Source: a virus
Lineage: Duplodnaviria > Heunggongvirae > Uroviricota > Caudoviricetes
Reading direction: 5' to 3' (one strand)
Virus record (IMG/VR): IMGVR_UViG_3300044673_000278
Location: 187,694-251,693 of that record
DNA: 64,000 bases
This document shows positions 53,644 through 54,544 of the stretch, piece after piece. Made by a program: the position numbers and the translations under genes. Every line of letters starts with the position of its first letter. The stretch's first letter is position 1. The notes beneath the pieces were generated by a model. The model saw nothing but the letters and a program-made list of their open reading frames with translations, did not search any database and was not told the origin of the DNA.

Positions 53644-53720
53644 TGGTGCCCCCAGCGGGACTCGAACCCGCAAAATTCTGATTTTGAGTCAGACACGTAT
53701 ACCAATTCCATCACAGGGGC
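53644..53720 (-). tRNA. tRNA with anticodon CAA (Leu-type anticodon) but class-I architecture
   Basis: Acceptor GCCCCTG/TGGGGGC, A73, CCA encoded. Anticodon stem TCTGA/TCAGA with loop CTCAAAA. Variable arm only ATTTT. T-arm GCGGG-TTCGAGT-CCCGC. Confidence 0.5.
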
Positions 53721-53777
53721 ATTGGTTATTCAAGTATATATTATACTTGAAGTCTGGTTTGTTGTAAACCAGGTTCT

Positions 53778-53855
53778 TGGTCGGTGTAGCAAGATTCGAA
53801 CTTGCGACCCCTTGCACCCCATGCAAGTGCGCTACCCAGGCTGCGCTATACACCG
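53778..53855 (-). tRNA. tRNA-Pro (GGG)
   Basis: Anticodon stem CTTGC/GCAAG with loop ATGGGGT. T-loop TTCGAAT. CCA encoded. Confidence 0.6.
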
Positions 53856-53936
53856 TAATTGGCACGCCCTTCGGGAATCGAACCTTCGACTCTGTGGTTT
53901 TGGACACCCAGAGATCAGCCAGAGTGAGCGCATGAT
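53856..53936 (-). pseudogene. tRNA-like remnant (Trp-like anticodon loop UCCAAAA; no acceptor stem)
   Basis: Contains GGTTCGATTCC and GTCCAAAACC, but the acceptor and T stems do not pair. Confidence 0.3.
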
Positions 53937-54012
53937 TGGTGGAAGTAGTCGGGATCGAACCGACGACCTCTTGCATGCCATGCAAGCGCTCTCCCAGCTG
54001 AGCTATACCCCC
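53937..54012 (-). tRNA. tRNA-Ala (GGC)
   Basis: Acceptor GGGGGTA/TACTTCC with G3:U70. Anticodon loop ATGGCAT. CCA encoded. Confidence 0.65.
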
Positions 54013-54467
54013 ATTATATTCGTTCGCGCTTGACGCGACCTATGCGACTGGCTTTGTTCCAGTCATATGCAACACCGTCTGGGCAAACACCATCACGAAT
54101 GCTGTCTACTCCAAACATACCTACAATTTCAAAACCATCGCCTGAGATGGTAACAAAACGATTCAACAACTTGGCATGAGCCATTGCTAGATCCAGTCCA
54201 GCAAACGATGTTTCTACACCGTCACATTCAACTATAAACAATTTTTTCTCTTTTCTCTACAACAACAATAAAATGCAAACAACCGGTTTCGCTAGGGCGT
54301 GTGGCTGAGGACTATCGACCAGGGTTTGGCGCTCCGGCTCCCACAATGGATAATCTTTGACACCGGCAACAGTCAGGAACCTCTCATTCCTGCAACTTTC
54401 CGTCAGATGCGCATCACTGCGCAGAGCCATCCGGGGTATTACCCCTACACGTTTTTTGTTTGCAAAC

Positions 54468-54544
54468 TGGTGCCCTGGGCGGGACTCGAACCCGCAGCGC
54501 CACGGACCTCAACCGTGTGTGTTTGCCAATTTCACCACCTGGGC
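54468..54544 (-). tRNA. tRNA with anticodon GAG (Leu-type) but class-I architecture
   Basis: Anticodon stem CACGG/CCGTG with loop TTGAGGT. A73. Variable arm GCGCT. One A-A mismatch in the acceptor stem. Confidence 0.45.

Follow-up and report, generated by a model that had tools for sequence, protein, structure and literature searches.

Can a tRNA of bacterial type give up its long variable arm and still serve leucine? The question is raised by a 64,000-nt stretch of viral DNA (Duplodnaviria; Heunggongvirae; Uroviricota; Caudoviricetes; positions 187,694 to 251,693 of IMG/VR record IMGVR_UViG_3300044673_000278), which as a whole we call the window. Within an array of tRNA genes, it carries two genes with leucine anticodons, one a tRNA-Leu(CAA), the other a tRNA-Leu(GAG), whose variable arms are short. 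A long variable arm is the textbook hallmark of bacterial tRNA-Leu. An earlier reading of the window's letters, here the original prediction, left three options for the pair: unusual leucine isoacceptors, mis-charged decoding or tRNA-like decoys. Judged from sequence, both genes very likely encode functional type I (short-armed) leucine isoacceptors of a jumbo myovirus array, and they belong to a widespread, little-discussed phage family that probably functions in the ordinary way.

Two leucine tRNA genes with short variable arms

The tRNA-Leu(CAA) gene lies at positions 53644-53720 and the tRNA-Leu(GAG) gene at 54468-54544, both on the minus strand. Each is 77 nt long including its encoded CCA (74 nt + CCA), and both have A73. 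The Rfam tRNA covariance model matches them over their full length, with 56.6 bits for CAA and 54.9 bits for GAG (gathering score 29; E ~1e-10), and its alignment gives the same cloverleaf register and anticodons as ARAGORN. From the model alignment and the sequence, the CAA tRNA is GCCCCUG-UG-AUG-GAAUUGGUAUA-CGU-G-UCUGA-CUCAAAA-UCAGA-AUUUU-GCGGG-UUCGAGU-CCCGC-UGGGGGC-A-CCA and the GAG tRNA is GCCCAGG-UG-GUG-AAAUUGGCAAA-CAC-A-CACGG-UUGAGGU-CCGUG-GCGCU-GCGGG-UUCGAGU-CCCGC-CCAGGGC-A-CCA. The D arm of each consists of a 3-bp stem and an 11-nt loop (GAAUUGGUAUA and AAAUUGGCAAA, respectively), the T arm GCGGGUUCGAGUCCCGC is identical in the two, and the variable loop is 5 nt long (AUUUU in CAA, GCGCU in GAG), with U48 as its last base. 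Both 7-nt anticodon loops, CUCAAAA and UUGAGGU (the latter with G37), have U33 and the motifs usual for modification, A36A37A38 in CAA and G36G37 in GAG, which fit the isoacceptor in each case.

These calls bear out the short variable arms and A73 that the original prediction had described on Leu-anticodon tRNAs. The register of the anticodon stem was re-examined, and neither a mis-parsed long arm nor a different anticodon emerged; with two independent tools giving an identical cloverleaf and anticodons, an error of register or parsing is ruled out. The cloverleaves had also been called clean, which needs qualifying on two counts: the last two pairs of the CAA acceptor stem are G-U (U6-G67, G7-U66), and in that of GAG A5 and A68 are mismatched (A5 x A68).

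Leucine identity without the long arm

The leucyl-tRNA synthetase (LeuRS) of E. coli relies on A73, the A15-U48 pair, G18G19, A20a and D/T-loop contacts, and does not use the long arm (PMC9976931). In E. coli-type systems the long arm defines the class II shape, not leucine identity (PMC9976931). Both window tRNAs carry all of U8-A14, A15-U48, G18G19, A20a and A73, as well as T-loop U54, U55, C56 and A58; what both lack is the long variable stem-loop of the class II shape. The premise that bacterial tRNA-Leu must be class II is thus too strict, given that the E. coli enzyme ignores the arm (PMC9976931) and that Streptomyces coelicolor has a natural type I tRNA-Leu(CAA) (PMC6614811).

The rest of the molecule also places the pair among leucine tRNAs. 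In rough, ungapped comparisons, the body without its variable region is 75-80% identical to class II tRNA-Leu of viruses and cells, whereas the best of 1245 non-Leu viral tRNAs reaches no more than 70%. Identity of the pair to type I tRNA-Leu is 83-94%. These figures bear on a class I tRNA of another isotype whose anticodon has mutated to Leu, an origin that would explain the short variable loop trivially and that has a precedent in human tRNA-Leu-CAA-5-1, a tRNA-Met derivative (PMC8450103). We rejected an anticodon-shifted origin on the body similarity and give it almost no credence: class II tRNA-Leu has the same 3-bp D stem and 11-nt D loop with AAUUGG, and a matching T arm, and in relatives a single body carries five Leu anticodons. 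A regular expression for the Leu D arm plus A73 leans in the same direction but is too coarse to carry weight: among type I Leu it matched 75%, among class II Leu ~60%, and among non-Leu tRNAs 7%.

A covarying family under purifying selection

Alignment A1 of the short-armed family holds 57 distinct 77-nt members in 77 columns without gaps. Its invariant columns are U8, A14, A15, G18, A22, U33, A35, U48, G53, U55, C56, A58, C61, A73 and CCA, and the LeuRS-determinant columns are invariant or at least 90% conserved. Read against a cloverleaf whose variable loop has 5 nt, A1 shows 98.3% of its cells paired and compensatory change on both sides at 19 of the 20 pairs. In 500 shuffles the observed values were never reached, and pairing falls to 32-50% once partners are shifted by 1-3 columns.

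Purifying selection is apparent at the level of the genes themselves. Both are identical at 77 of 77 positions in a related contig, L004 (numbers with L designate contigs and viral loci), which has the same gene order and spacers that are 73-81% identical; the chance of such identity at an 81% background is ~1e-14. The tRNA-Leu(CAA) gene has 100% identical copies in the IMG/VR loci L004 and L007. Decay in a fast-turnover array, which would make the pair pseudogenes, might account for the A5 x A68 mismatch in GAG, and the array does hold at least one degenerate tRNA-like gene (59187-59259, 31.5 bits). It is hard to square with full identity between phages whose flanks diverge by ~20%, with compensatory changes across the family and with Rfam scores that are normal for the array, and we consider such decay extremely improbable.

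Distribution of short-armed tRNA-Leu in viruses and cells

We scanned IMG/VR for an exact pattern, a Leu anticodon loop followed by ten bases and the T arm of the window, and found 25 viral contigs. In these, ARAGORN called short tRNA-Leu with CAA, GAG, UAG and UAA anticodons in numerous large arrays, often adjoining normal 82-88-nt tRNA-Leu genes. A second pattern, the D arm GGAATTGGTATAC-N9-T, is blind to the variable arm and was scanned on both GTDB species genomes and IMG/VR; the comparison covers the first 120 matches listed per collection for this one motif and is a sample, not a census. All 87 motif-bearing tRNA-Leu from GTDB were class II (80-86 nt without CCA). The 96 from IMG/VR split into 46 of type I (74-76 nt) and 50 of class II, and no gene had a length of 77-79 nt. 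The short form is therefore restricted to phage sequences in the sample (46/96 viral vs 0/87 cellular, Fisher p = 1.6e-16). Nearly all of the sampled viral type I genes encode CCA (44/46), and the stretches fetched around them hold a median of 15.5 tRNAs. In 30 of 79 viral loci, type I and class II tRNA-Leu share one stretch, and all five Leu anticodon types (CAA, GAG, UAG, UAA, CAG) are found in the family on the same body.

G37 is usual in bacterial CUN-reading tRNA-Leu. All 26 distinct 77-nt type I tRNA-Leu(UAG) have A37 (loop CUUAGAA), and the window GAG tRNA has G37.

The loss does not extend to the other long-armed isotypes: of the distinct tRNA-Ser genes in these viral loci, 101 of 103 are still long-armed, as are 35 of the 37 tRNA-Tyr genes. 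Arm loss is specific to Leu, the class II isotype whose synthetase can do without the arm. Seryl- and tyrosyl-tRNA synthetases need it and LeuRS does not, which may be why Leu alone lost it. Separately, we observed class I isotypes with long arms in phage arrays, namely Asn(GUU) of 84-94 nt, Cys(GCA) of 84-87 nt, Thr(UGU) of 86 nt, Lys(UUU) of 87 nt and Arg(UCG) of 86 nt; examples are L026:713-801 (the 89-nt tRNA-Asn of phage 4MG), L191:11402-11495, L003:6686-6772 and L237:12382-12468. Change in the variable region of phage tRNAs thus runs both ways. In the literature searched, which included the eLife paper on phage tRNA escape, we found no paper treating the short-armed tRNA-Leu family of phages.

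Cultured relatives and probable charging in vivo

A blastn search against cultured phages returned genes of the same architecture, annotated plainly as tRNA-Leu. They include Leu(UAG) and Leu(UAA) of Tequintavirus OSYSP (MF402939.1), Leu(UAG) of the T5-like Epseptimavirus TrudiRoth/Bas30, Leu(UAG) of the Escherichia phage 4MG (Seunavirus), Leu(CAG) of Xanthomonas phage X1, which stands beside a class II Leu(UAG), and Leu(UAA) of Proteus phage VTCCBPA139. Like the window pair, these are 77 nt long with CCA and have A73, a 3-bp D stem, AAUUGG in the D loop and a variable loop of 5 nt whose last base is U48; 4MG Leu(UAG) and the window CAA tRNA share the D arm UGAUGGAAUUGGUAUACGUG and the AUUUU loop exactly. 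They differ from the window genes in anticodon (UAG, UAA or CAG rather than CAA or GAG), in acceptor and anticodon stems, in host and in phage lineage. The OSYSP gene is matched by 513 phage records, and armless tRNA-Leu is present in hundreds of cultured coliphage genomes. Its carriers among cultured coliphages include T5-like, rV5-like and other phages.

OSYSP offers a view of function. Its whole genome has exactly two tRNA-Leu genes, both of 77 nt, and a 2026 preprint reports that a "bacteriophage-derived (GenBank MF402939.1) tRNA-Leu(CGA)", with a swapped anticodon, decodes TCG as leucine in recoded E. coli (PMC13596443). Since both OSYSP tRNA-Leu are short-armed, we infer that in living cells E. 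coli LeuRS charges a type I phage tRNA-Leu with leucine irrespective of the anticodon.

The two other options fare worse. As decoys or sponges, the tRNAs would be tRNA-shaped molecules standing outside translation and titrating tRNA-targeting nucleases or other tRNA-binding host factors. An over-expressed phage tRNA can blunt tRNA-directed defences (PMC13096335), and odd tRNA-like genes do occur in phage arrays, for example at 59187-59259 and 62803-62894. We find this improbable, however, for genes that keep U33, A35 and a position 37 appropriate to the isoacceptor, that come with five Leu anticodon types and whose LeuRS identity columns are invariant; moreover, OSYSP has no tRNA-Leu gene besides its short-armed ones, and an OSYSP tRNA-Leu inserts leucine.

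Mis-charging would have another synthetase take the armless tRNAs, so that UUG or CUY is read as a different amino acid. LeuRS ignores the anticodon and identity rests on the body, and class-switched tRNAs that break the code exist, such as the nematode nev-tRNAs (PMC3333845). Such recoding seems very improbable here, as the whole Leu identity set is kept and most other synthetases depend on an anticodon of their own (PMC9976931), found in neither tRNA. Codon use points the same way: in 45 window open reading frames (ORFs) UUG is the commonest Leu codon at 28.6%, CUU and CUC add 20%, and UUG with CUC/CUU makes up ~49% of the phage's Leu codons; reassigning UUG would hit nearly every protein. 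Among the three options, then, unusual Leu isoacceptors are favoured by the identity set, the covarying stems, the 77/77 identity in L004 and the OSYSP result, and neither mis-charging nor decoys find favour.

Several points weigh against reading the pair as working leucine tRNAs. In vitro, E. coli LeuRS failed to charge the S. coelicolor type I tRNA-Leu(CAA) (PMC6614811); acceptance of an armless tRNA-Leu is therefore not to be assumed for every bacterial LeuRS. The link to OSYSP is our own, as the preprint gives neither which of the two genes was used nor its length (PMC13596443). The Rfam model flags the A5 x A68 mismatch in GAG. Finally, minimum free energy structures of the two genes are not cloverleaves (z = -1.2 and -0.2); such folding is uninformative here, and it is the covariance model and covariation among relatives, not folding energy, that uphold the fold. 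On balance, functional leucine isoacceptors remain the likely reading. In annotation, a short tRNA with a Leu anticodon in a phage array is not to be written off as a pseudogene or mis-call. Phages commonly drop the tRNA-Leu arm yet keep everything that LeuRS is known to read.

How and why the arm may have been lost

The pair would descend from an ordinary bacterial-type class II tRNA-Leu that lost its variable stem-loop but retained A73, the D arm specific to Leu, the Levitt pair A15-U48 and the contacts between D and T loops. A host LeuRS that reads neither anticodon nor long arm would so charge both tRNAs with leucine through A73 and the elbow. The CAA tRNA would then read UUG and the GAG tRNA CUC and CUU.

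CAA and GAG are the only Leu tRNAs inside the window. The 25-kb IMG/VR contig L273 overlaps its last 469 bases at 99.8% identity and continues beyond, and there, at L273:11419-11918 (~0.3-0.8 kb past position 64000), it carries two class II genes, an 85-nt Leu(UAA) and an 84-nt Leu(UAG), as well as a tRNA-Glu and an 86-nt tRNA-Tyr. The array thus extends beyond the window, and the phage, or one nearly identical to it, encodes two tRNA-Leu of each type, class II and type I, which jointly cover all six Leu codons; the class II UAA and UAG genes just past the window would serve those that the short pair leaves. The Leu(UAA) and Leu(UAG) of L273 also exclude a phage without class II tRNA-Leu, which we had considered.

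Both forms also occur within one genus. Phage T5 has an 85-nt class II Leu(UAG) beside tRNA-Ala(UGC) (L388:9625-9709), so the idea that T5 itself is armless is false. The T5-syntenic position in OSYSP (L030:3693-3769) and in 131 near-identical records is taken by a type I gene, 77 nt long and very unlike the T5 gene in sequence. Both forms are therefore found in Tequintavirus, and the difference between T5 and OSYSP points to gene replacement rather than simple deletion.

A permissive synthetase together with deletion pressure would be enough to explain the loss. A stronger version of the isoacceptor reading adds counter-defence: the arm would have been lost in order to escape nucleases, of the host or of competing elements, that recognise or cut the class II arm, and Leu decoding would survive destruction of the host tRNA-Leu. 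Phage tRNA-Tyr, T5-derived or from SP15, resist cleavage by retron-Eco7 owing to a different variable loop (PMC13096335, PMC12673091). Human SLFN11 prefers type II tRNA-Leu and cuts the arm-deleted form less well (PMC11615386). The confinement of type I tRNA-Leu to viral sequences, for the motif tested and among the matches listed, is in line with such an escape, and a T4 Rnl1-type RNA ligase with kinase-like and phosphatase-like ORFs near the array would fit pressure from tRNA nucleases. We nonetheless regard counter-defence as a doubtful addition. The literature searched yielded no bacterial nuclease aimed at the tRNA-Leu variable arm, L273 keeps two class II tRNA-Leu and the two types stand together in 30 of the 79 viral loci, and a dispensable arm under deletion bias gives the same pattern. 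As nucleases that cut the variable loop are known for tRNA-Tyr, arm loss in tRNA-Leu does make a testable escape hypothesis.

The tRNA array and its phage

The surrounding array (53644-63067) comprises 33 tRNA genes called by ARAGORN; every one lies on the minus strand, and CCA is encoded in nearly all. Array size is put at 33-34 tRNA genes, and the Rfam scores of both Leu genes fall in its normal range. The tRNA-Ser genes of the array are long-armed, at 92 and 90 nt. Homing-endonuclease or HNH-like ORFs lie among the tRNA genes on the minus strand (57425-58186 and 58527-59117, PHROG/Pfam), as in the tRNA regions of T4 and T5, and an RNase H-like ORF adjoins tRNA-Leu(CAA). A consensus scan found a sigma-70-like promoter match, TTTACA-17-TATAAT (11/12), on the minus strand at 53740-53768, ending ~20 nt upstream of tRNA-Leu(CAA); it is no more than a pattern match, in a region with 8 such sites where 3.9 are expected. 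Related viral loci (L007, L008, L011) also yielded calls of tmRNA-like genes.

The window derives from a large (jumbo) myovirus, whose host is probably Gram-negative. Megablast of the region against INPHARED gave short, tRNA-sized matches and no close cultured relative; by protein, the nearest cultured relatives are PA5oct-like Pseudomonas jumbo phages at 45-51% amino-acid identity. PHROG and Pfam matches in the window include virion proteins, homing endonucleases and the T4 Rnl1-type RNA ligase, and no aminoacyl-tRNA synthetase appeared among the window ORFs scanned. The ligase (45265-46203; PF09511, phrog_562) is followed on the minus strand by an HD-domain ORF (46632-47180), an AAA_33 kinase-like ORF (48267-48740) and a dual-specificity-phosphatase-like ORF (48728-49207, a weak match); together, these ORFs at 45265-49207, 4-8 kb from the array, are a possible RNA-repair set. 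Elsewhere, five consecutive plus-strand ORFs have radical-SAM matches (9983-11563, 12646-13971, 13953-15650, 15647-16864 and 19385-20695) and are followed by a Nol-like carbamoyltransferase (21828-23306, plus strand), and a DegT-type aminotransferase and an NAD-dependent epimerase lie within 30292-32323 on the minus strand. Taken together, 9983-23306 and 30292-32323 look like a sugar or nucleotide modification cluster.

Long-armed tRNA(UAU) and other unusual RNAs

The array also holds the converse case. At 62803-62894 on the minus strand lies a tRNA of 92 nt whose anticodon is UAU (AUA codon) and which combines A73 with a long variable arm. ARAGORN calls it Ile, and in Rfam it is a weak tRNA-Sec match, with 30 bits against a gathering score of 47. 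It is one of a large family in phages. Relatives are found, for example, at L162:4203-4294, L228:2356-2447, L181:4722-4815, L021:3932-4023, L184:2342-2432 and L012:9849-9948, and an IMG/VR scan with TTATA..CAGATWA..GGTTCGA returned at least 120 contigs. The matches listed give 104 distinct tRNAs, 88-100 nt in length, and A73 is present in 80 of 81. Their variable-arm hairpin has a conserved 7-nt loop that reads CAGAUUA in 76 and CAGAUAA in 25; at the three pairs that close it, pairing runs at 99-100% with compensatory types, compared with 26-63% when slid. The loop equals the tRNA-Ile(GAU) anticodon loop CUGAUAA with U33 changed to A, which hints at a possible surrogate determinant for isoleucyl-tRNA synthetase or for a modification enzyme. 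Cultured matches come from Synechococcus phages S-SKS1 and S-SRM01, which are unannotated at that spot. The literature searched held no description of the family, which is possibly a more novel pattern than type I Leu.

Side by side, the armless Leu and long-armed UAU tRNAs invite a broader idea, that phage arrays systematically re-engineer the variable region in a tRNA arms race, deleting the Leu arm, with which LeuRS can dispense, to hide the phage copy from host nucleases that recognise or cut class II arms, and adding to tRNA(UAU) a long arm with the CAGAU(U/A)A loop. We think this unlikely. If it were true, phage counter-defence and tRNA identity engineering would have a general and hitherto undescribed axis in the architecture of the variable arm.

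Two further unusual RNAs lie within the array. A GOLLD RNA lies inside the array at 61488-61950 on the minus strand (Rfam RF02032, 198.9 bits vs a gathering score of 150), with copies ~80% identical in viral loci L014, L022, L024, L161 and L233. Within it is a tRNA-Lys(UUU)-like sequence (61817-61888) without CCA and with acceptor-stem mismatches. The tRNA-like gene at 59187-59259, on the minus strand beside tRNA-Pro(GGG), is found by Rfam (31.5 bits) and receives no call from ARAGORN; parsed by hand, its acceptor stem pairs with a 3' ACCA and its anticodon loop is UCUGGAG, with C at position 33.

Comparison with known short-armed leucine tRNAs

Leucine tRNAs without a long arm have been described outside phages. 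In animal mitochondria, tRNA-Leu(UUR), and in the laboratory, minimal E. coli tRNA-Leu, accept leucine without the arm as long as A73, A14 and the elbow contacts are intact (Larkin 2002, as cited in PMC9976931). They differ from the phage genes in that the mitochondrial tRNA has a dedicated LeuRS and a degenerate body, and the minimal E. coli tRNAs are laboratory constructs. Another case is a tRNA-Leu(UAG) of a Mycobacterium cluster, mentioned in passing in PMC6582537, which resembles the window genes by description: it has a short loop and lies in a mobile tRNA array, besides a chromosomal class II tRNA-Leu. Its host belongs to another phylum.

A further counterpart is the natural type I tRNA-Leu(CAA) of S. 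coelicolor, which coexists with class II tRNA-Leu and is charged by the bacterium's own LeuRS (Fan et al. 2019, PMC6614811). That enzyme, ScoLeuRS, makes no interaction with A73, takes C74 as an identity element instead, and depends for charging on its leucine-specific domain (PMC6614811). By description, the likeness to the window lies in a type I tRNA standing beside class II and served by a bacterial LeuRS; the S. coelicolor gene differs in being chromosomal and actinobacterial and in needing the leucine-specific domain of the Streptomyces LeuRS. E. coli LeuRS failed on the S. coelicolor tRNA in 2019, whereas coliphage tRNA-Leu appears to work with it, and what separates the two short-armed forms can now be dissected.

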